A stretch of DNA of 63,156 bases. It comes from an uncultured virus (IMG/VR IMGVR_UViG_3300025085_003231). Lineage: Duplodnaviria; Heunggongvirae; Uroviricota; Caudoviricetes. Shown in pieces: positions 3,861 through 56,769 of the stretch. The stretch lies in IMG/VR virus record IMGVR_UViG_3300025085_003231. One strand, written 5' to 3'. The notes under the pieces were generated by a model. The model did no database searches, was not told where the DNA came from, and worked only from the letters and a program-made list of their open reading frames with translations. Within the stretch, counting starts at the first letter, position 1. Every line of letters begins with the position of its first letter. Position numbers and translations under genes: made by a program.

Positions 3861-4289
3861 TCACTCCTCCGAATCTTTGCCGTAAATAACAGGGACATCC
3901 ATAGGTTCATCAGGCAAATCAAGAGCATTACGAACCATGTTGGCTTTGTCTTTATCATATTCTTCACGGGCTTCTTCTAAAGTTAGACCTCGTGCTTTAC
4001 AATCCATGATGTATTGTTTCTTGTTTTGTTCAAAACTCATGAGTGCTATAATGTTAGCGATTGAATCATCAACTTGTTTGTCCTCTTCGGAGGCAGGTCG
4101 TGAAAACAACTCATCAACTTCCCTTCGGAGAGCAGCGTGGGTAGCCCCGCCACCCACAGGAACGAATTCTTCTATATCATCGTCTCGGACTGCACCAATA
4201 GCACCCTCCGAAATTCTTTCAATCATTTCTTCGGCTTGGCTACGGGTAACTGGAAAACCTGCTCTTTCCCAATATCTGACTTCGGACAT
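3861..4289 (-). CDS. Hypothetical protein
   Basis: 142-aa ORF with promoter at 4310. Confidence 0.75.
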   Translation of the reverse strand: MSEVRYWERAGFPVTRSQAEEMIERISEGAIGAVRDDDIEEFVPVGGGATHAALRREVDELFSRPASEEDKQVDDSIANIIALMSFEQNKKQYIMDCKARGLTLEEAREEYDKDKANMVRNALDLPDEPMDVPVIYGKDSEE

Positions 4290-17416: not shown

Positions 17417-19117
17417 TCAGACTTCTAAGGCATCAAGAATGCCGTCGTTGTCATCATCGTCGTCCAGATTATCTGCGACACCATCGTTGTCATGGTCAAA
17501 CTGACCTGTTTCATCGTTGCCGTCATTCTGTTCAAACCAATCGGAAAGTCCGTCGTTGTCGTCGTCCAAATCCGAAGCATCCCAAATACCATCGTTGTCA
17601 TGGTCGTAGCGATAAGCGGAGAATGCACCACCGATTTCATCAACATCAAGAATGTCGTCGTTATCGTCGTCAATATCTACTGCATCGTTAAGTCCATCAT
17701 TGTCGTGGTCACGAGAAGCATCAGAACCGTTGTCGTAAAGGTCTTTGTAGTTGTCAATTCCGTCGTTATCAATGTCCAAGTCATACCAGTCGGGGATGTT
17801 GTCGTTGTCGTGGTCGTAAATGTCGGTATTGTCATTACCGTCATTGACTTCTTCGTTGTCGTTTAGACCGTCGCCATCGTCATCATCGTCTTCTGAATCA
17901 ACAATTCCGTCGTTGTCGTGGTCCATTGGGGAATCATCCATAGAATCTGGGATTCCATCATTGTCGTCATCATTATCCAAATCATTAGGGATTCCGTCAC
18001 CATCATTGTCGTTTTCGCCATTTTGGTTTTGGTTATCTAATTGTTGCCCTTGTTGTTGTTCATTCTGTTGTCCTTGCTGACCTTGTTGGCCGTTTTGGGT
18101 TTGACCTTGCTGTTGTTGGTTAGCACCATTTTGGTTTTGGCCGTTCTGTTCTTCGGCTTGTTGTTCAGATTGCTGACCGCCTTGCTGACCGCCTTGTTGT
18201 TGTTGGCCTTGGCCGTTGTCTTGTTGCTGGCCTTGTTGTCCAGATTGACCTTGGTTTCCTTGCTGACCTTGTTGGCCCTGCTGACCTTGCTGTCCCTGTT
18301 GTCCCTGTTGGCCTTGCTGTCCTTGCTGGCCTTGTTGTCCTTGTTGGCCCTGTCCTTGACCTTGACCTTGGGATTGTCCTTGGCCTTGACCTTGACCTTG
18401 TCCTTGGCCTTGCCCTTGTCCTTGACCTTGACCCTGACCTTGACCCTGACCTTGGCCTTGACCTTGGCCTTGACCTTGGCCTTGTCCTTGACCTTGGCCT
18501 TGACCTTGGCCTTGTCCCTGCCCTTGTCCCTGTCCTTGTCCTTGGCCTTGGCCTTGTCCTTGACCTTGACCTTGACCCTGACCTTGACCTTCTCCTTGTC
18601 CTTGGTCTTCGGATTCTCCTCCGCCCTCGGTTCCACCATCTCCAGAACCTGGGTTAGATTCTTGGAAATCTGGGTCGTAGGCATCGGGAATTCCATCTCC
18701 GTCGGAGTCGGAATACTCGCCATCGTTAGGGTCTGTTGGGTATTGGTCTACATTGTCGGCCTTGCCGTCACCATCGGTGTCGGAGTTATTGGGATTTGTT
18801 CCCTTGGCATATTCTTGGGCATTGGAAAGTCCATCGCCATCAGGGTCTGCATTGGCATCTCCACCGTTGGTGGGGTTGAGGCCATTGGAAACTTCCCACC
18901 CATCGGGTAGTCCGTCGCCGTCTGAATCAGCGTTGTTCATATTAGTGCCGTGTGTTTGTTCTTCGGAATTGGTAAGTCCATCTCCGTCCCAGTCGGCTCC
19001 ACCGTCAGATGGGTCCAATGGGTCAGAACCGTCAGCGGCTCCAACACCTGCGCTCAAAACGAGCATCAGGGTAGTCAGTAGTGCAAGCATCGTATTTTTG
19101 AATTTGTTATTTTTCAT
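17417..19117 (-). CDS. Secreted Ca-binding (DxDxDG, thrombospondin-3-like) protein with poly-GQ linker
   Basis: Signal peptide, DSDGDG repeats, (GQ)n/(GQQ)n tract, DHDND repeats. Confidence 0.9.
   Translation of the reverse strand: MKNNKFKNTMLALLTTLMLVLSAGVGAADGSDPLDPSDGGADWDGDGLTNSEEQTHGTNMNNADSDGDGLPDGWEVSNGLNPTNGGDANADPDGDGLSNAQEYAKGTNPNNSDTDGDGKADNVDQYPTDPNDGEYSDSDGDGIPDAYDPDFQESNPGSGDGGTEGGGESEDQGQGEGQGQGQGQGQGQGQGQGQGQGQGQGQGQGQGQGQGQGQGQGQGQGQGQGQGQGQGQGQGQGQGQGQGQGQGQSQGQGQGQGQQGQQGQQGQQGQQGQQGQQGQQGQQGQQGNQGQSGQQGQQQDNGQGQQQQGGQQGGQQSEQQAEEQNGQNQNGANQQQQGQTQNGQQGQQGQQNEQQQGQQLDNQNQNGENDNDGDGIPNDLDNDDDNDGIPDSMDDSPMDHDNDGIVDSEDDDDDGDGLNDNEEVNDGNDNTDIYDHDNDNIPDWYDLDIDNDGIDNYKDLYDNGSDASRDHDNDGLNDAVDIDDDNDDILDVDEIGGAFSAYRYDHDNDGIWDASDLDDDNDGLSDWFEQNDGNDETGQFDHDNDGVADNLDDDDDNDGILDALEV
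18230..18604 (-). repeat. Coding hexamer/nonamer tandem repeat (GQ, then GQQ)
   Basis: ccttga/ccttgg/ccttgt/ccctga units on + strand with synonymous variation. Confidence 0.95.
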
Positions 19118-19218
19118 AGTAATCGTTTTCCTATTATAAAGTTGTTCATAGGGAACCCACTGTTCCCTCTAACTGTATATTCGGTTTTCTTCCTATTTAA
19201 GATTAACTATGTGCTGCA

Positions 19219-19908
19219 TCACTTTCTTTCCCAATCATTGAGTGTGAATCCCGTAGATGTGACGGAAAAAATTACCTCTACGGCTATTAAAACTTTGATT
19301 GTGAACTCCGTCTCTCCGATGGTTTCTGTAAATTGGTATTCTATTGTTTCTATTGGCATTGTGATTTCTTCGTTGTATGTGTTGGGGTTTGTATCATCCC
19401 AATCGGATAACCATGAATCAGGATTGTCGTAAATGTCATCCAAGTGTTCTTCAGCCCACTCATCAACAAATTGTTGTATATCGTCATCATCCACAGAAAA
19501 ATCCCAGTCAGAAGAAATACTCCCTGCTGGTCCGACCACATCAACAACTTTCCAACTATATCTGCCTTCGCCTTTTCTTGTGAATGTTGCTATTGCCTCG
19601 TAATCAGGGTCATCTCCATACTCATCCACACCTTCGTAGTCAGATATTTCTGAGGTGGTGGCATCAAAATATTCTGTCAAATAAACATCTATGGTATCTT
19701 CTAAAGATTCAATTTTATGTCCGATTGTGTTAGATTTCTTTTGCAATTGGTGGGCAAGATGTCTTCCTTCAGGAGTATTGGGACACTCGGAAATCATGTG
19801 GTTAATTTCCAAAAACAAATTCAATAGGAATCCATAATCATTAGACTCCATAGCATCGGATTCTTTTAACCAGTTAAGCAGAAGTGTAGCCTCCCCCAAA
19901 TCATTCAT
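19219..19908 (-). CDS. Highly acidic hypothetical protein
   Basis: About 50 D/E in 229 aa (hand count). Confidence 0.8.
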   Translation of the reverse strand: MNDLGEATLLLNWLKESDAMESNDYGFLLNLFLEINHMISECPNTPEGRHLAHQLQKKSNTIGHKIESLEDTIDVYLTEYFDATTSEISDYEGVDEYGDDPDYEAIATFTRKGEGRYSWKVVDVVGPAGSISSDWDFSVDDDDIQQFVDEWAEEHLDDIYDNPDSWLSDWDDTNPNTYNEEITMPIETIEYQFTETIGETEFTIKVLIAVEVIFSVTSTGFTLNDWERK

Positions 19909-38275: not shown

Positions 38276-40438
38276 TTAAGTTTTACAGGTTGCTTCATCA
38301 AATGCTGCAAGCATTTTCTCAGGAAGTTTGCTACGAACGGATTGCAACAACGAATCTGAATTCATATCCCAATCACGATTGCGAATCCGAATTAAAGGAA
38401 TGCCCTTTTCCCGACAGATTTTATCTTTAGATTTGTCATTGCCTTTTCGGACTCTAAATGCTTCACGACCTCCGAACTTAGCCGATGGGATATAATGCTG
38501 TTCACCATCCATCTCTACTGCAAAACGGATACCCTTTTGATTGATATAAATGTCTAATTCCAGCATATTGCCTTTGCGATTGCGAAGCCACGGATAACGG
38601 CCATTGTGCTTCAATTCTGGGAAGTATTGTTGTAGCATTTCAACGGCTCTTTTTTCAGCCAAAGATTTGTTTTCATTAGTGACTCCGATAGCGATGTCTT
38701 GTGAGGAGATTTTTTCAGTGTCATTAGAATTGACCCATGTGCTTTCAATCCAATGAGTAATCCAGAGTGAGCCGTCAGATTTTTCCTGAATGTATTTAGC
38801 GTCTTTTCCAGAACGATTTTTAATTGGTTGTGTTCTCCAATGTCCTGAACGAAGGTGCATGGCTTTTTTCTCACCAGTGGATTTAGAACTTTTTGATGAA
38901 ACATACTTGACACCATTTTTTCCAAGAATACGGTATGGCAATTTATTTCGTTTTTTGTCTCCTTTTTTATTTGTTTCTATGCCTGAAACTTTGCGAATCT
39001 CGGGTTCTGAAATGGGTGCTTGAATGTAAATACAAAGATTCAAGCAAGTGCTAACAACTTGATTCCAAAATTTCTCAAGTTCTTTGAGTTCGGTTTTAGT
39101 AATCTTATTTTCACGACCAAAGAGGCCACACATCTGGAACAATAATTGTTGTGCCAGCATGGGTGGCAAAGTAAGTTTTTGGTCATCCTGTGTAAATCTG
39201 GAATCTTTTAAATCTCCAAAAAATTCTTTTGTAAGTTGATTCTGTTGTTCAATAACATCGTCTAATGTTAATTCATCTTTTTGAAATAGTTGGAAAATCT
39301 TCTTGATGTGTTGTTTGACTAATTTCGGAGTGATATTTCCTGAATCATCCACGATGCTGTTTTTGGGAACGACCAATGTTTTGACAGATTCTGTATCTCC
39401 ATAAACATTGAACCAAATTGATTCCTCGGATTCAAACATAAAAATGGTAGACATAAACTCAATTTGAGGTCTATCCTCCCAACTATCCCAATCATGGTGT
39501 AAAAAAGAATCGTCGCAGTAATCAAAGTCAAAAACTATACCATTCTTGTAAGGTCCAATTTTTAATAATTCTGCGGGATAGGTGTAGTTGGTTTTTTCTA
39601 ATTTTTGAACCATGTTCGGTCGGATGATAAATCGCTTGTTTTTTTCAGCAAGACGAGCCGTTTTGTTTTTAGTTTCTGTTCCTGGGCTGTGGTATCTGTG
39701 GTGCATTAAAAGCAAGTCTAAGTTGCGTTTTAGTTCCAGGCTGTGGAACATTTGAATTGTGTTCCACGAGCCTTGTTGTTCTTCATCTTCATTTTCAGCC
39801 CACCAATCTACATCTTGGCTGCGATAATAGAGGACACGCTTCAGGCTCCAGTCATCTCCCACTTTTTTAATCAATCCGATTGATGCGTCTGTATTAAAAA
39901 TTGTAAGTTCGTTCCAACCCACTTCTTCGTAAAACTCATCAGAGCCAATCATGCTGCTAAGGTAATCCTTCCATTCTTCTATAAATTGAACTGCCTCAAC
40001 CACAGAACCATTGATTTCAACAGGAATTGATTCTAATGCTTTATCGGGCAGCGGTGTATTTCGGGGTGATGAATAGGCTCTTTGGTTTTGGTATGATAAT
40101 TCTTCACTACTGTAATCAGTGAAATAGTTGGAGCCTTCTTCAAAAACCTCATCAAAATGTTTTAATGGAATCAAAACTCTGGCATCTTGGTTAGGGGCAG
40201 TAAAGTAGTAATCTCCAGAACTAATCCAATCATCAAGTTGAGTTCTATGGATGGTTGGTTGAATCACAAATCTGAAAATGTCTGATGCTTGAATGCCGCC
40301 TGGTATTGAGTGTAGGGCATCGTAGATAATCCTATTTTTACCACCTTTAGGGTGTTGTTTTAGATATTCATCATAATAGTGCTTCATCAAATCGTGGGGT
40401 GATACATCTGCTCTCCCTTTATTACGGAGCCTTTTCAT
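38276..40438 (-). CDS. Large protein with C-terminal Vsr/DUF559-like PD-(D/E)XK nuclease
   Basis: LELDIY..AVEMDGEQH..D..K..C...GIPLIRI; HLRSGHWR motif upstream. Confidence 0.8.
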   Translation of the reverse strand: MKRLRNKGRADVSPHDLMKHYYDEYLKQHPKGGKNRIIYDALHSIPGGIQASDIFRFVIQPTIHRTQLDDWISSGDYYFTAPNQDARVLIPLKHFDEVFEEGSNYFTDYSSEELSYQNQRAYSSPRNTPLPDKALESIPVEINGSVVEAVQFIEEWKDYLSSMIGSDEFYEEVGWNELTIFNTDASIGLIKKVGDDWSLKRVLYYRSQDVDWWAENEDEEQQGSWNTIQMFHSLELKRNLDLLLMHHRYHSPGTETKNKTARLAEKNKRFIIRPNMVQKLEKTNYTYPAELLKIGPYKNGIVFDFDYCDDSFLHHDWDSWEDRPQIEFMSTIFMFESEESIWFNVYGDTESVKTLVVPKNSIVDDSGNITPKLVKQHIKKIFQLFQKDELTLDDVIEQQNQLTKEFFGDLKDSRFTQDDQKLTLPPMLAQQLLFQMCGLFGRENKITKTELKELEKFWNQVVSTCLNLCIYIQAPISEPEIRKVSGIETNKKGDKKRNKLPYRILGKNGVKYVSSKSSKSTGEKKAMHLRSGHWRTQPIKNRSGKDAKYIQEKSDGSLWITHWIESTWVNSNDTEKISSQDIAIGVTNENKSLAEKRAVEMLQQYFPELKHNGRYPWLRNRKGNMLELDIYINQKGIRFAVEMDGEQHYIPSAKFGGREAFRVRKGNDKSKDKICREKGIPLIRIRNRDWDMNSDSLLQSVRSKLPEKMLAAFDEATCKT

Positions 40439-49533: not shown

Positions 49534-50100
49534 TTATGCCTCACTAAATTTAGTCTTTGCTTGAACGGCATACGCCAAAGGAATATCAGAGTTGAGAAAT
49601 TGAGGGGTGAGATTATACTGGTAAGAATTGTTATTATTTTTGGTGACTGCAACTATTCCTCGTGCAGCATAGACTCGCAAGACGGCTCCAATGGTTCGGG
49701 ATGAACAAATGGTGGATTGGTCTATCCAATAATGTTCTAATTGCTTGGCATTAGAATTGGGGTGGTATTGAAGCAGTTTGAGAATTCTCCAATCACGGCT
49801 GGAGTTTTTTCCACGCTTCATTTGCAAGGAACAGGCTCGTCCACAAAATTGTTTATTAGATTTTCTCTTGTTGTGTGAAATGGTAAATTCGTCTCCGCAC
49901 CAATCGCAAGAAATTTTTATCTTGGGGCGCATCCAAGTATTTTTATGGTGCTTTGATTCTGATACTCTGACTTCGGGATATGCCTCGGGGTTTTGATAAT
50001 AAATCCAACAGTAATGGCTACAATGGGTGGTGAAATACTGCGTGTGCCTTTCAGCAGTGGTGATGATTTCTTCTCCACAAGGGCATTTAGGATACTGCAT
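49534..50100 (-). CDS. Zn-finger + wHTH regulator (paralog family)
   Basis: CPCG..CSHYC..YQNPEAYP..CDWCGDEF..FCGRAC..IGAVLRVY..RGIV. Confidence 0.8.
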   Translation of the reverse strand: MQYPKCPCGEEIITTAERHTQYFTTHCSHYCWIYYQNPEAYPEVRVSESKHHKNTWMRPKIKISCDWCGDEFTISHNKRKSNKQFCGRACSLQMKRGKNSSRDWRILKLLQYHPNSNAKQLEHYWIDQSTICSSRTIGAVLRVYAARGIVAVTKNNNNSYQYNLTPQFLNSDIPLAYAVQAKTKFSEA

Positions 50101-50656
50101 TGACTTTCGCCTCCTTCAATCTCAATTTTTCTTTTACTATTTTTCCTAATGGTAATTTATTGGCTTCTGAAACCATTTTGTAAGTGCGAGGCCATGCTCC
50201 ATCCTCAATCTCAATAATTCCTCGGCTCAGATAAACTCGTAGTATGCTTCCAATGTGTCGGCCTGTAAGATAATTAGTTCCTAATGTTGGGCAGATAATT
50301 TCGGCTAACTCTCCTGATGTGACAGGGCTTTTGGCTACTTTAATATTGGCTAAAATGTAGAGGTCTCTCCAGTTTCTCTTTCCTTGCATCATGGTGTGGT
50401 GACATTTTTTACCACAGAAATTCATATTGGGGTTGCCGTATCTCAACAAGAATTCATCTCCACAGAGGAAACAATCTACTGGTATTTTGGCTCGCTTCAA
50501 ATGGTTTTTATGAGTGATAGCATCGGACATTTTTTCCATCGGGTAGGCATCAGGATTTTGATAATAGACACTACAATAGCGGCTACAATATCCGTGATAA
50601 AAGGTATTACCTGAGCGAATGTAAGTGATTGGTCTTCCACACAAGCATTGTTCCAT
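50087..50656 (-). CDS. Zn-finger + wHTH regulator (paralog family)
   Basis: CLCG..CSRYC..YQNPDAYP..CFLCGDEF..FCGKKC..IGSILRVY..RGII. Confidence 0.8.
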   Translation of the reverse strand: MEQCLCGRPITYIRSGNTFYHGYCSRYCSVYYQNPDAYPMEKMSDAITHKNHLKRAKIPVDCFLCGDEFLLRYGNPNMNFCGKKCHHTMMQGKRNWRDLYILANIKVAKSPVTSGELAEIICPTLGTNYLTGRHIGSILRVYLSRGIIEIEDGAWPRTYKMVSEANKLPLGKIVKEKLRLKEAKVNAVS

Positions 50657-50665
50657 ATTATCACT

Positions 50666-51937
50666 TCACAAAGGGTCTTTGAAAGCAAAGGCTTTCATTT
50701 GGCGATTCTGAATATTGTAGACGGACAAATATCCCATTTTTGGTTTGTAGCCCAACATTTGCATGAAATCTGTTTCACCTTGGAAAGTGGATGAAACAAC
50801 GAGAGGGATGCCACGATACATCTCCATTTGATGAGCATGGGTGTGTCCTGTGACGAAAATATCTGGGTTGGTGCTGATAACCATTTGGTCTTCTTCTTCA
50901 GGAGAGAGTGCATTTCGCTCGCCCCACATTGGAGCAAGGTGTCGCTTTCTTAGCATTTCTTTCATGGCTTCAGCAGGTCGTTCATACGAAACATGAGCCA
51001 TACGAGGAACCATGTCATCAATACCTTTGCCGTGATATGACAATACTTCAATTCCTGAGAGATTTACTCTGGCAGGATTGCCCACATGAACCGCTGAATT
51101 GAACCTTTGTTGAATAAGTGGTTCTAACATGGGTTGAGGTTCAGCAGGTCTAACTGCATCGTGATTTCCTGGCAAAACTACGGGAGTGATGTGGTCTGGT
51201 AATTCATCCAATTTTCTGGCAAACATTTCGTATTGGTCGTAGACATTGTCCATGGTGATATTGCGCTCGTGTCCTGGATATACACCAACTCCATCAACAC
51301 AATCTCCCGAAAGCACAAAATACTTGATATTTTTTGCAACATGATGGTCTGAATTCATCCATTCTACCATCTCATCCCATTCCTTTTCCAAGAACTTTTT
51401 GCTGCCCATGTGGATGTCTGATGCGAAAGCAATAGATACGGGGTCAAAGTCTAATCCGCCACGATTCTGATTATTGGGCAAAACCTCTGGGAACTGAACT
51501 CGGTCAGTCCAAAACATTCTTCCATCATCGGAAAATTTTCCTGTGACTCCGATAACATCGTCTACTAACAAAGTGGCTACGGAAGGGTCTTCTTTTCTTA
51601 AGAATACTGTAATTCTGCCTGTTTTATCCTCTAATTCAACCATTCTGCCTCCAGATTTGGTGCGTCTAATATCACAGACAATTCCAATGATATTACAAGG
51701 GCGGTATTTGAAAGCCATTTTCTGACTGTTCAATTCACTGATATTCATGGTTTCACGAAACCCTAAATGTTGGCGAATAATTTTTCGGAGTTCTTCGTAT
51801 CGGTTAGCAAATAGATTTACCAAATCTCCCATTTTCCCAGTTTGGTCGGTTTGTCCAACACGAACTCCTGGGTCAATCATGTCGGGATAATCTCGTGCTA
51901 ACTCAAACCAGGCTGAGTTAATAGAATTGGATACCAT
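50666..51937 (-). CDS. dp1: DNA polymerase D small (proofreading) subunit DP1
   Basis: OB fold (ELEDKTG), SDIHMGS, GDCVDGVGVYPG, PGNHD..R.AEPQP, YHG, RHLAP, GHTH. Confidence 0.95.
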   Translation of the reverse strand: MVSNSINSAWFELARDYPDMIDPGVRVGQTDQTGKMGDLVNLFANRYEELRKIIRQHLGFRETMNISELNSQKMAFKYRPCNIIGIVCDIRRTKSGGRMVELEDKTGRITVFLRKEDPSVATLLVDDVIGVTGKFSDDGRMFWTDRVQFPEVLPNNQNRGGLDFDPVSIAFASDIHMGSKKFLEKEWDEMVEWMNSDHHVAKNIKYFVLSGDCVDGVGVYPGHERNITMDNVYDQYEMFARKLDELPDHITPVVLPGNHDAVRPAEPQPMLEPLIQQRFNSAVHVGNPARVNLSGIEVLSYHGKGIDDMVPRMAHVSYERPAEAMKEMLRKRHLAPMWGERNALSPEEEDQMVISTNPDIFVTGHTHAHQMEMYRGIPLVVSSTFQGETDFMQMLGYKPKMGYLSVYNIQNRQMKAFAFKDPL

Positions 51938-53298: not shown

Positions 53299-53844
53299 TC
53301 ACAGAACGCTGTTTAGTTCATCCATGAGTGCATCAGCCGCTGCGTCCGCATCTTCAGGTGACTTTGTCCCTGTGATAACACACTTGCCTGACGAAAACAC
53401 GAGGCATACTGCTGATGGAGCATCAATTCGGTAAATCAAACCTGGGAATTGCTCAGGCTCATATTCTGTCTTTTCAAACGGAAGTGATAGCACAAGATTG
53501 TTAAGGTCTACGGGTTGTTCGTAATCTGTGGTGATAACCAGATTGGAAATTTCAATCATTTCAGTATCAAATGGATTTGCATCGGTCAAGAACCCTTCGG
53601 TTGTTAGACGCTCATGTAGTTGTCGGAAGGCAGATTCAACATCTGATTCTGACCTTGCTCCTGTGGCAACAACTTTTCCGCTGCGGAATAGTAGCAAACA
53701 AACTTTGGGTGTTTCAACACGATAAACCATTCCTGGGAATTGTTCTTGTTCGTATTCTACTTGTAGTGTGTCTGCTACATCATTGATGTCAAGTGATGTG
53801 CAATATCTTGTGCTGGCTACCATATTTACAATTTCGTTAGGCAT
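53299..53844 (-). CDS. tbp: TATA-box binding protein
   Basis: Two repeats: NMVAS..YEQEQFPGMVYR..LFRSGKVVATGA and NLV..YEPEQFPGLIYR..VFSSGKCVITG. Confidence 0.97.
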   Translation of the reverse strand: MPNEIVNMVASTRYCTSLDINDVADTLQVEYEQEQFPGMVYRVETPKVCLLLFRSGKVVATGARSESDVESAFRQLHERLTTEGFLTDANPFDTEMIEISNLVITTDYEQPVDLNNLVLSLPFEKTEYEPEQFPGLIYRIDAPSAVCLVFSSGKCVITGTKSPEDADAAADALMDELNSVL

Positions 53845-53885
53845 ATTTGTTCGCTCCTTAAATACTAAGGTGCGTTATTACCTAT

Positions 53886-54125
53886 TTAAGCATTGAGTGG
53901 GTTGGGCTTTCCACAACTGGTGCAACACGCCAAAATATCGGCGTAAATGATGCCGCATGAACATCGTAATTGCTGGTTAATTCTAAGCACCATGTCTTGA
54001 AGTTCCACATCTAAGTGGTGTTGAGGAATCTCTTGTTTTTTCCAAGATTTGTCTCTTTTTTTCTGCCGTTCTTTTTGTGAGACAAAGTCTCGGTTCTTGT
54101 TCTTATTTTTACCCATATGGTTCAC
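53886..54125 (-). CDS. Basic Zn-ribbon protein
   Basis: CSCG..CTSCG. Confidence 0.65.
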   Translation of the reverse strand: MNHMGKNKNKNRDFVSQKERQKKRDKSWKKQEIPQHHLDVELQDMVLRINQQLRCSCGIIYADILACCTSCGKPNPLNA

Positions 54126-54127
54126 TC

Positions 54128-54469
54128 TCAGATAAGAGATGCTAAATGCTCATTATCTCCGTAACGAGCAATGACTTTCCACAATCTTTTAAGACCTAAT
54201 GATGCAGCCACTAATTCTTGAATTAGCGGTGCCATGAAATCAGGGTCAAGTTCAGGGTCTAAACCTTCCACAGACATTTGAATCTCAGCGGCACAAGCCA
54301 TGATTGCAGGACTAAGTTGCGTGATATTGACCTTTTCTCCTTCGGGAAAATAACTAAGAATCACTTGTTGAATAACGGGCAAAATTGAATACTCTTCGTC
54401 TCCCTCTTCAGTTACTAAATAACTGAGAAGAATATCTTCGGGGTTTTGCTCCAATACCACAGTAATCAC
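54128..54469 (-). CDS. Hypothetical protein
   Basis: 113-aa ORF. Confidence 0.65.
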   Translation of the reverse strand: MITVVLEQNPEDILLSYLVTEEGDEEYSILPVIQQVILSYFPEGEKVNITQLSPAIMACAAEIQMSVEGLDPELDPDFMAPLIQELVAASLGLKRLWKVIARYGDNEHLASLI

Positions 54470-54496
54470 TTGTATTTTTGACTATTTGAATATGAG

Positions 54497-54594
54497 TGCG
54501 GGGTGGTCAAGGGGAAAGAGAGGAAGCGACCCATAAACCAAGAACATCTGAAAGAAAAGAAGAGGAGAACATCCAGAGACTTTTTTACCCCGCA
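54497..54594 (-). ncRNA. Candidate small RNA with terminal stem and pyrimidine-rich loop
   Basis: Promoter at 54614 predicts start ~54593; UGCGGGGU pairs with ACCCCGCA; no plausible ORF. Confidence 0.6.
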
Positions 54595-54607
54595 ATATAG
54601 TTTTGGT

Positions 54608-55174
54608 TCACGACCTATTTAAGAATGAGCGTGACATAATCGTATTATAATTGATGATATAGTTTTCTTCCGAGACAACGGGGTATCCAACTATCTCTGG
54701 GTCAAGGAGAATATCATTGGTTGTGATAACGGTGGGCAATAGTTGTAATTCTGGAAATGGGAGCATAGCATTATGGTCTACAAAATTTCTCATATGTGTG
54801 GCTTTGTCAATCCTTCCGTGGCGGTCTACCTTTCTTTTTTCCGATTTTGTTAGTCGGTAATTATCTCTGGTGATGGGGCGGTCTTGAGGCCATAACTGAA
54901 GTTCTTGTGTGTCATTATTTCGGTGAATTGCTACCCAAGTCCCAACTGTTTTTCCTTGTGGGTGCCAAACAATCAAAAATGCGTCCGTAGCAAGTTTTCC
55001 TGAAGAGTCATTACTAAGGTATATTCTTTGAGTCCTGTTCCCACGAGTCGTAGGGGTTGGAGGGAAGCGACCCAATTTTGAAAGGTAATCGTCTCTGGTT
55101 CCTAATTTTAACAACCGAGCAATTTCATTCAGAGTAGTTGCTGGGAGGCTGTCTATTCGGTGTTCTATCCACAT
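54608..55174 (-). CDS. Hypothetical protein with C-terminal IINY tag
   Basis: 188-aa ORF after GAGGTGA SD. Confidence 0.75.
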   Translation of the reverse strand: MWIEHRIDSLPATTLNEIARLLKLGTRDDYLSKLGRFPPTPTTRGNRTQRIYLSNDSSGKLATDAFLIVWHPQGKTVGTWVAIHRNNDTQELQLWPQDRPITRDNYRLTKSEKRKVDRHGRIDKATHMRNFVDHNAMLPFPELQLLPTVITTNDILLDPEIVGYPVVSEENYIINYNTIMSRSFLNRS

Positions 55175-55178
55175 AAAC

Positions 55179-56450
55179 TCACCTCAGTATTTGCGGGATT
55201 CGGTAATTATAATTGATAATATTGCTATATTCGTGTGTGGATGGGCCTCTTTGTTGAGGTGTTCTTTGTCTTTTCCATTCTCTTTCGGTTCTTCCTGAAA
55301 ATAATGGTAAGCAACTTTCAGGGTCAAAGGTGATTTTAGTGGCGAATCCTATGGGATTTCTGCCTTCAACGGATTCTCGTGTCCTCCTGGTTCCTGCTCC
55401 TGAAGTGGCCCTTGATAGAGAAGAATTGAGACCTGCGTTTCTTAGGACATCCGCAATAGACATTGGATGAAAGATGGCTTGAGACTGATATGCAGCCTCT
55501 GGAAGTGAATAGACAACTCGGAATTCCTGATTTTCTAAAACACTCATTAAAGATTTAAGGTTTTTTTCTGTTACGCAAGTTGCTGTAAATTCTCGTCCTA
55601 TGTAATTGCCTCCCCTTCTCAACTTGTTTCTTTTTAATTTGTCGTGAATGGTTGTCATTTTAACCCCTGTGCCATACCCCAATACGCTGGGGTATTGGAA
55701 TGTAACTGGTTTGAATTGAGCACTGCTTCTTCGTTTTATAGTAGCATACCAATCCATATTTTCTAAAATGCGAGAACGATTTCCTTGAATTGCCTCTCGT
55801 CCTGCTTGACCGTATTTGCGGTAAATAATTCCTCCTTGGAAATCCCAATTATATGCAATTCCTTTGAAGGGTTCCATCTCTGCAAACTCATCTTCTTTTA
55901 ATACATCAAAGTTGTCATTTGCCGTTCGCCTTTTCGCCGTAATGCCCAATATTTGATATTCTACTGGTAGGCCAAATTTAAGTGGATAATTACCTTCAGC
56001 GTCTGCAATGGGGGAGCGATGCAAACAAAACCACCCTCCGTTTGATTTTCCAAATTGGGCAGCCCGATAATTGTTGCTATCTCCTGCCTTAAAGATGTAA
56101 TCTTGTTTTGTTCGTGGAACCCAGAAAAAAAGCAATTTGTTATCCATCAAGTAAAACTTCTGCTTCTCAACAGGCTTTTCTTGAATTTCTGACCAAACAG
56201 ACCATAGATTTATATCTCTCAAAGGTTCGTAATTGATAATTTCTTCTGCTGGAATCGTTCGTCGTCCCGCTCCATATCCGACTCGTCTTTCGCTTGTTAT
56301 GTATAGCCTTAAATATTGCGGCGAAAATTGCGTGGCGGTGGTCATTAGGGGAGGTGTGTTGATGTCAATCATTTGGGTGTATCCAAAGGAACTGAAAAAA
56401 GAATTGAACTCCTCATTAAGAAATGGTCCTGTAAATTTAATAAAACCCAT
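55179..56450 (-). CDS. Hypothetical protein with C-terminal IINY..IPQILR tag
   Basis: 423-aa ORF. Confidence 0.8.
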   Translation of the reverse strand: MGFIKFTGPFLNEEFNSFFSSFGYTQMIDINTPPLMTTATQFSPQYLRLYITSERRVGYGAGRRTIPAEEIINYEPLRDINLWSVWSEIQEKPVEKQKFYLMDNKLLFFWVPRTKQDYIFKAGDSNNYRAAQFGKSNGGWFCLHRSPIADAEGNYPLKFGLPVEYQILGITAKRRTANDNFDVLKEDEFAEMEPFKGIAYNWDFQGGIIYRKYGQAGREAIQGNRSRILENMDWYATIKRRSSAQFKPVTFQYPSVLGYGTGVKMTTIHDKLKRNKLRRGGNYIGREFTATCVTEKNLKSLMSVLENQEFRVVYSLPEAAYQSQAIFHPMSIADVLRNAGLNSSLSRATSGAGTRRTRESVEGRNPIGFATKITFDPESCLPLFSGRTEREWKRQRTPQQRGPSTHEYSNIINYNYRIPQILR

Positions 56451-56769
56451 AGTAATCTCTTAGTGCGCTTGTTATTTAAAATTTTTGAATGTGATGGGGT
56501 CTACTACACAAATATAGGGATGTAAAACCTCGGCAATACATCTTTCTTTTTTGGGATGTCGGGATTCACGCAAAGCATGAAGCAAACATTTACCCGTGGT
56601 TAATATTCAAATATTATTCAGCCCATGGTATCTGCAAATAACCAATTCGCAGCATGAACTTTAAGCGTCGTTTTCAGAACAATATTGTGCCAATCAATAC
56701 TGCCCTGTCCACTTAATCGCTTGTGTAGTTTCCCTCCACTATTTGGTGGTGGTGCTACCTATTTAAGAT

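Follow-up and report, generated by a model that had tools for sequence, protein, structure and literature searches.

The locus described here raises the question of what a promoter makes when no gene begins where one would be expected. It lies in a 63,156-nt stretch of DNA from an uncultured virus of the Caudoviricetes (IMG/VR record IMGVR_UViG_3300025085_003231), the whole of which is referred to as the window. The motif TTAAATAGG occurs 21 times in the window, each time on the minus strand, against an expectation of 0.67 copies; none of 100 shuffles reached 21, and the largest count among them was 3. At 17 of the 21 sites an ATG opening 49-423 codons is found 20-23 nt past the motif, i.e., the genes are leaderless. 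Archaeal TATA boxes that drive leaderless mRNAs show the same motif-to-ATG geometry, and from this spacing together with general knowledge of archaeal promoters we read TTAAATAGG as an archaeal-type, TATA-like promoter motif. No such ATG follows the four remaining sites, at 56766, 54622, 53889, and 19200. At the site considered here (54614-54622, minus strand) the motif overlaps the last codons of an upstream 188-aa gene (p188) and is invariant in all relatives. A preliminary description had noted the perfect motif, and complementary arms (GCGGGGU and ACCCCGC) in place of the expected ATG, and had suggested that a non-coding RNA of ~100 nt with a loop resembling the anti-Shine-Dalgarno (anti-SD) sequence is made from this promoter. 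Motif and arms were confirmed in the sequence. We take the interval to encode a real structured RNA of the virus that had not been catalogued before, and for which an anti-SD function is proposed from its sequence features.

The RNA interval, its relatives, and its fold

The RNA core occupies 96 nt (54498-54593, minus strand) and is supported by folding, covariance-model matches, and pair counts. Transcription is predicted to start at G54593, at offset 21 after the motif, as judged from the 20-23 nt spacing seen elsewhere in the window; by position count, a G at this offset is also the first base of helix P1 in all three clades of relatives. The core has the form of a three-way junction in which P1 joins the two ends, its 5′ arm GCGGGGU (54587-54593) pairing with its 3′ arm ACCCCGC (54504-54498). 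A run of A residues (54581-54586) lies between P1 and hairpin P2, the strands of which (54582-54572 and 54552-54540) enclose a 19-nt loop, L2, with one purine (54553-54571). Hairpin P3 (strands 54539-54530 and 54514-54505) carries the 15-nt loop L3, also with one purine (54515-54529), and abuts the 3′ arm of P1. Between the P1 arms, 70.7% of the residues are C or U, compared with 47% for the strand, and 7 of 12,615 sliding windows are equally rich. The C/U-rich interior mentioned in the preliminary description is thus borne out. GAUGUUCU occurs twice in the RNA (54573-54566 and 54548-54541), but this duplication does not recur in the other clades.

Relatives were collected through homologs of p423, an upstream 423-aa protein; at 37-86% identity these gave access to one viral contig and 16 metagenome loci. 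Over the region, the closest record (97% identity) is a 40.6-kb viral contig from IMG/VR, and a scan of viral contigs by protein and by DNA pattern for further relatives returned one record only. The relatives derive from marine metagenomes, with contigs of up to 163-173 kb, and the p113 cluster, named for the gene downstream of the RNA, comprises dozens of contigs. The order p423-p188-RNA-p113-p79-TBP is kept even in a distant clade where p188 is only 25-32% identical; despite this divergence, the promoter motif, the non-coding stretch, and the downstream block can still be aligned there. The covariance model found one match in the window and one in each of 12 of 12 loci spanning the interval, a count that leaves aside the remaining loci, which end before it. 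Nine distinct sequence variants were obtained and fall into three clades, one window-like, one comprising L015 and L016, and one comprising L010, L013, and L017. Eleven DNA-pattern matches in genome contigs had neither the promoter nor a model match and were set aside as chance. The RNA was absent from three distant viral contigs that carry a TATA-binding protein (TBP) gene (best model E = 0.44), and a phage collection gave no match.

The preliminary description had called for an Rfam search, and this assigned the RNA to no family: the whole window gave no match to Rfam 15 at the gathering score, and when the region 54300-54800 was compared at E values of up to 10, only RF01536 appeared, at chance level (18.2 bits vs. 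a gathering score of 45; E = 0.62). ARAGORN identified no tRNA or tmRNA gene in the window. No open reading frame (ORF) of at least 20 codons is common to all clades. A 37-codon TTG frame was considered as a small protein gene and rejected; it is present in the window, L005, and L006, absent from L004, L010, L017, and L013, and divergent after five residues in L015, and close relatives are separated by 1-nt indels inside it. As judged by its reading frames, the ~96-nt stretch is non-coding.

Folded alone, the window sequence is only moderately more stable than its shuffles (z = -2.26 and -2.44), and the case for structure therefore rests on the relatives. Each of the nine variants, folded singly, adopted the same three-way junction, with a P1 of 7-8 bp joining the ends, a junction of 4-6 A residues, a P2 bearing an L2 of 12-19 nt, and a P3 bearing an L3 of 14-20 nt. 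Members of the distant clade fold far beyond their shuffles (z = -5.39 for L010 and -4.77 for L017). In a position-wise count over the nine variants, 63 of 63 P1 pairs were standard; three positions had changed on both sides, and G-U intermediates were found in L004 and L013. P1 reads GCGGGGU/ACCCCGC in the window clade and L015, CGGAGGU/ACCUCCG in L010 and L017, and UGGAGGU/ACCUCCG in L013. Likewise, P2 covaries from CUGGA/UUCAG to UUGGU/ACCAA in L015, and P3 is GGUUUAUGGG/CCCCUUGACC in some variants and GGGUUCAGGU/ACCUGAACCC in others. A model built only from L010, L013, and L017 (model R2) detected the window copy with E = 1.2e-8 in 126 kb. In the alignment derived from R2, 87.9% of the cells were paired vs. 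71.2% in shuffles, a value reached by none of 500, and when the partners were slid by 1-3 columns only 36-51% remained paired; in 16 of 28 pairs, both sides had changed. A plain MAFFT alignment of all clades analyzed with RNAalifold missed P1 and P2 through a one-column misalignment of the arms, an error that carried over into model R1, which was built from it; the evidence for structure is accordingly taken from the single-sequence folds, the distant-clade model, and the position-wise pair count. As a separate observation, P1 of the distant clade is itself an SD/anti-SD-like duplex, GGAGGU/ACCUCC (L010:3933-3939 with 4020-4026, and also in L017 and L013).

The strand on which the structure is formed was assigned as minus because of the direction of the promoter, the strand asymmetry of the loops, and a C-to-U change in L004 that yields a G-U pair on the minus strand only. 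On the opposite strand this change gives A-C, and the predicted energies are -22.5 kcal/mol (minus) and -17.1 kcal/mol (reverse complement); in the window clade the reverse complement folds about equally well (-25.2 vs. -25.2 kcal/mol). Taken as a whole, the data make it very probable that an RNA structure under selection is expressed here from the minus strand. The idea of a promoter-linked, structured, non-coding RNA was borne out by the invariant motif, the lack of a conserved ORF, and the fold common to all nine variants, and the check for covariation in homologs upheld the closing stem, which is conserved with compensatory changes.

The p113 promoter, a second unit, and the pyrimidine loops

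A second, variant promoter, TTCAAATAG (54490-54482, minus strand), begins 7 nt after P1, and its pattern, [CT]TCAAATAGT, is kept in all clades; the spacing from P1 to this promoter is tight and conserved (7-8 nt). It lies 21 nt ahead of a GTG at 54460 that is invariant in all clades and is the probable start of p113 (54128-54460, minus strand), the first gene of the run p113-p79-TBP. A GTG three codons earlier, picked by the ORF finder, is GGG in L013. The same arrangement of a TTCAAATAG-type variant, 21 nt, and an ATG was also found ahead of genes starting at 19908, 6830, and 4289. As read from these spacings, p113 is most probably served by a leaderless promoter of its own, independent of the TTAAATAGG upstream, and because this promoter is conserved the RNA is probably a product separate from the p113 mRNA.

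A further unit of similar layout was found on the minus strand at 56478-56766. There, TTAAATAGG (56766-56758) is followed not by an ATG but by ~270 nt with no conserved frame, then by TTTTAAATAAC, and then by the leaderless ATG of p423 at 56450. In 10 of 10 loci, the promoter of this unit precedes p423 by 316-325 nt. Its consensus fold has 34 predicted pairs, 11 of them changed on both sides, and includes a 16-bp hairpin; its predicted 5′ end is an invariant GGAGG, and no Rfam match was obtained for it. The existence of two units laid out alike suggests RNA genes rather than accidents.

The loops of the RNA between p188 and p113 are almost devoid of purines. In every variant, L2 and L3 have 0-3 purines in 12-20 nt, and L2 alone has 0-1 in 12-19 nt. 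The two loops cannot pair with one another, since the best L2-L3 duplex had a predicted energy of +0.3 to +2.0 kcal/mol in all nine variants. L3 contains UCGCUUCC (54522-54529 in the window) in 8 of the 8 variants tested, with a predicted mean unpaired probability of 0.84-0.999. This invariant motif is complementary to the SD consensus GGAGGUGA at eight positions, two of them G-U, and the duplex has a predicted energy of -11.9 to -12.1 kcal/mol vs. -14.3 kcal/mol for a perfect complement. Complementarity of L3 to the SD consensus is suggestive: composition-matched shuffles of L3 paired as well in 7-30 of 2,000 cases (L3 beats 98.5-99.7%), which corresponds to p ~0.01 conditional on composition, for one invariant motif tested after inspection. 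The anti-SD-like loop of the preliminary description therefore stands for L3, with its invariant, SD-complementary motif that is predicted to be accessible, and falls for L2.

The genes of the window differ in how they are equipped for translation. Internal genes have SD motifs (GGAGG, GAGGTGA, or AGGTGAT) 4-12 nt ahead of the start; by a simple 5-mer rule such motifs were present at 20 of 94 ORFs, and 18 of these 20 lack a promoter-like motif. It had been stated beforehand that promoter-proximal genes are mostly leaderless, and this agrees with the 17 of 21 sites counted above and with the GGAGGTGA-type SD carried by internal genes.

Candidate partners for the loops within the element were sought among its leaders and start regions, and several were tried and rejected. 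Pairing of L3 with AAGGAGCGA in the TBP leader was discarded on finding that the CGA part is altered in the L010 clade while L3 is unchanged. Within the second RNA, the purine-rich 5′ end was the best site in 4 of 5 clades, but shuffled targets did as well at rates of 0.005-0.83, and the result was not significant. Pairing with the EEG codons of p113 beat shuffles in only one of seven variants, and pairing with the p79 ribosome-binding site was inconsistent across variants. At the start region of p113, no pairing was kept across clades or exceeded shuffles.

Proposed function and rival readings

We tentatively propose that the locus encodes a stand-alone small RNA that acts through its anti-SD-like L3 loop on SD-type sequences. 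In such a scheme, TTAAATAGG would start transcription at G54593, and the transcript would fold into the three-way junction, with P1 tying the 5′ end to ~54498 and with P2 and P3 displaying their nearly purine-free loops. The mature 3′ end would be generated either by trimming as far as P1 or by the promoter complex 7 nt downstream acting as a block. L3 would then act in trans, pairing with SD-type purine tracts on mRNAs and damping SD-dependent initiation, and the promoter-proximal genes of the virus, being leaderless, would be exempt from this damping.

A number of results weigh against this proposal. The internal genes of the virus themselves use SD motifs and would be hit too; these cistrons, which often overlap or abut the preceding gene, might escape by translational coupling. 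The fit of L2 to the SD consensus is no better than that of shuffles (293-898 of 2,000 were as good), and the L3 match counts as a single observation because its motif is invariant. When the whole minus strand was scanned for targets of L2 and L3, the best energies (-20.1 and -20.0 kcal/mol, respectively) were within the range of 20 shuffled loops, so that the pairing with SD-led mRNAs envisaged at the outset has no specific target that stands out within the element. With respect to the fold, the count of pairs changed on both sides in the R2-derived alignment is somewhat inflated, as L006 and L009 are misaligned by one column in P1 and the alignment had itself been fitted to the model; moreover, the independent covariation events are few because the changes come from only three clades. 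Nor is a terminator evident, since no oligo-T tract follows: in seven of nine variants no T tract of at least 5 was found within 1.2 kb downstream.

Contigs from RNA libraries bear on the same point. Four runs from four studies were compared with the region (X2, X7, X8, and X9), and the contigs of three of them (X2, X7, and X9, from three studies) cover the RNA. X7 (54483-54633) and X2 (54408-54709) include the promoter, and X9 (54432-54606) runs into p113, which likewise counts against a stand-alone RNA. These contigs show no ends, strand, or level, and DNA carry-over is possible, so that a discrete transcript of ~100 nt is neither shown nor refuted by them; the parts they leave uncovered carry no weight. 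Their cover is equally consistent with read-through transcription, DNA carry-over, and a discrete RNA. What stands of the ~100-nt RNA first suggested is a conserved fold of ~96 nt, the discrete transcript being putative.

The same data are the basis of a second explanation, possible but somewhat unlikely, by which the junction is a structured 5′ leader acting in cis on long p113-p79(-TBP) transcripts and controlling their stability or translation. For example, a leaderless GUG gene could become leadered and poorly translated once the strong promoter fires, with the tandem promoters serving as a temporal switch. The lack of a terminator-like T tract after P1, the continuity of X9 from the RNA into p113, and the tight P1-to-second-promoter gap are all consistent with a leader, as are the other leaders in the element (36 nt with AAGGAG for TBP, and ~60 nt for the gene at 19117) and the similar tandem layout ahead of p423. 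However, p113 carries its own conserved promoter variant at the exact leaderless spacing, which leaves its expression without an apparent dependence on the upstream promoter, and pairing of the loops with the p113 start, the p79 ribosome-binding site, the TBP leader, or the EEG codons was neither conserved nor above shuffles. In addition, the predicted start is the first base of P1, which would seal both ends of the molecule, as is typical of stand-alone stable RNAs.

It is less probable, and on balance unlikely, that the RNA serves as a scaffold or decoy, its purine-free loops with their CUUC-type motifs binding a pyrimidine-tract-binding protein of the host or virus, possibly a dimeric one. 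Such a role would account for a loop composition (0-3 purines) and short common motifs that are kept while the stems change, and for the fact that no RNA target stands out; furthermore, the neighboring genes encode the basic, zinc-ribbon-like p79 and a protein that matches WYL_2 below threshold. This explanation has no protein partner to point to, and it leaves the fit of L3 to the SD consensus unexplained. The predicted structure of p113 (pLDDT, the predicted local distance difference test score, 73.2) gave no fold match at E ≤0.001. That the interval is a DNA-level element (serving replication, packaging, or regulation between the two promoters) or a spacer that is transcribed and only incidentally structured is very improbable: the equal folding of the reverse complement in the window clade would suit it, as would a transcript and an RNA function that are so far putative, but compensatory changes in all three helices, G-U pairs tolerated on the minus strand only, a correctly placed and invariant consensus promoter, and strongly strand-asymmetric loops argue against it.

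Returning to the stand-alone RNA acting through L3, a bolder extension, which we regard as decidedly improbable, is that the virus remodels translation initiation, with an abundant mimic of the 16S anti-SD titrating host SDs and the second RNA, through its GGAGG 5′ end, mirroring it as an SD mimic. If this were true, ribosomes would shift to viral leaderless messages, and together with TBP and a private TATA variant the virus would take over the choice of start in both transcription and translation. The contrast between leaderless and SD-led initiation is an open question in archaeal biology, and an anti-SD function, if correct, would constitute an RNA-based viral route that favors leaderless over SD-led translation. 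Even without it, both RNAs merit annotation as genes and provide handles for finding related viruses. The RNA family combines a defined promoter, a fold supported by covariation, and a concrete putative functional motif, and it occurs in an abundant lineage of uncultivated marine viruses with its own TBP. To our knowledge, few non-coding RNAs of archaeal viruses have been described. Literature searches, with most subscription journals outside their coverage, returned no description of this RNA and nothing comparable among non-coding RNAs of archaeal viruses, and for the promoter motif they returned unrelated papers only.

The element, its promoters, and known systems

All long ORFs of the window are on the minus strand, and G+C is 38-44%. 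The genes include TBP (53299-53844, minus strand; Pfam TBP, E = 1.3e-54) and one (50666-51937) for a PolD small-subunit-like protein of the DNA polymerase small-subunit/Mre11 type, which includes an OB fold. PCNA, an ERCC4 nuclease, a flap-endonuclease-like protein, Fpg, UvdE, a class II ribonucleotide reductase, and an ArsA-type ATPase are also encoded. Of these products, TBP, the PolD small-subunit-like protein, PCNA, and ERCC4 give the element an archaeal-type character. A search of 29 window proteins against PHROGs gave no match to a structural protein. Two proteins (38276-40438 and 50087-50656, minus strand), located inside the run of replication and repair genes, had HNH or homing-endonuclease matches in PHROGs. 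The conserved neighbor mentioned above matched WYL_2, an Sm-like SH3 barrel domain, only weakly and below threshold (E = 5.2e-05; 23.9 bits vs. a cut-off of 26.7 bits). The gene for p79, located between p113 and TBP (53886-54125, minus strand), encodes a protein whose N-terminal half is basic and whose four invariant cysteines (CxC...CxxC) resemble a zinc ribbon; the distant contigs L037 and L038 likewise have a weak p79-like match ahead of TBP.

TBP and the GGAGGTGA-type SD motifs before internal genes point to an archaeal host, as far as gene content and sequence motifs can indicate. Among the database labels of the relatives, one cluster member is given as a Thorarchaeota metagenome-assembled genome, and other relatives are labeled only 'archaeon'. 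A magrovirus identity was not supported, as the G+C of 38-44% and the single-strand gene layout found here disagree with the published description of magroviruses, which have genomes of 90-100 kb, a G+C of 31.5%, and genes in two opposed clusters (PMC10768690). The available portion of the Philosof paper makes no mention of TATA or promoters (PMC5434244).

The promoter system extends beyond the exact motif. Variants of TTAAATAGG, among them TCATATAGG, TTCAAATAGC, and TTAAATAAC, precede many more genes at an equal spacing (~21 nt to a leaderless ATG). The 21 exact copies and their variants make up a private promoter system in an element that encodes its own TBP; in the more distant TBP-bearing viral contigs L036 and L037, TTAAATACC followed by 21 nt and an ATG is found in place of TTAAATAGG. 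The TBP gene is among the few with a leader, TTAAATAGG at site 53889 being followed by 36 nt (53845-53889, minus strand). This leader holds a second TATA-like sequence, TATTTAAGG, that overlaps an AAGGAG SD, and ATTTAAGGAG is invariant in all clades; as judged from these motifs, the leader may be a candidate site of autoregulation. Another leader, of ~60 nt, separates the consensus promoter at 19200 from the start, at 19117, of a gene encoding a 566-aa protein with TSP3 repeats (19118-19200, minus strand). It opens with a perfect hairpin, GGGAAC...GUUCCC, and has no evident SD.

The RNA was compared with known classes of small RNA. It is not of the archaeal C/D box type, as the C box (RUGAUGA) is absent from all nine variants, and CUGA is absent from seven and internal in the other two. 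With Y RNAs it shares a length of ~100 nt, ends that form a closing stem, and pyrimidine-rich single strands; it differs in the absence of an Rfam match and of the conserved bulged helix that binds Ro. In shape, the closest system is the pRNA of phi29-type phages, also virus-encoded and promoter-driven, with a three-way junction that carries two hairpin loops and is closed by pairing of its 5′ and 3′ ends. RNAs of the pRNA type are ~100-170 nt long, and their loops pair between molecules; a pRNA-like RNA has reportedly been proposed for Acidianus bottle-shaped virus. Unlike in pRNA, L2 and L3 of the present RNA cannot pair, Rfam gave no match, and, so far as is visible, the gene does not lie at the end of a genome. 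The motif UCGCUUCC itself resembles the anti-SD at the 3′ tail of 16S rRNA (taken as the complement of the SD consensus), to which it is equal at six of eight positions, the two transitions preserving G-U pairs with GGAGGUGA; the likeness is limited to 8 nt and, rather than at a free ribosomal 3′ end, the motif is located in the hairpin loop of a small RNA.

In working principle, the closest systems are the SD-targeting small RNAs with C/U-rich apical loops, such as RsaE/RoxS and RNAIII of Firmicutes and the prophage RNA DicF. Judged by Rfam, they have no sequence or structure homology to the present RNA, which is set apart by archaeal-type transcription and for which no terminator, target, or chaperone was found; in particular, no conserved target emerged from the minus-strand scan or from the TBP leader, the second RNA, and the p79 and p113 sites. 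An accessible motif complementary to the SD, the hallmark of that group, is carried by L3 and not by L2. What the RNA is predicted to share with these regulators is a short, stable form, a promoter of its own, and an accessible pyrimidine-rich loop complementary to ribosome-binding sites.

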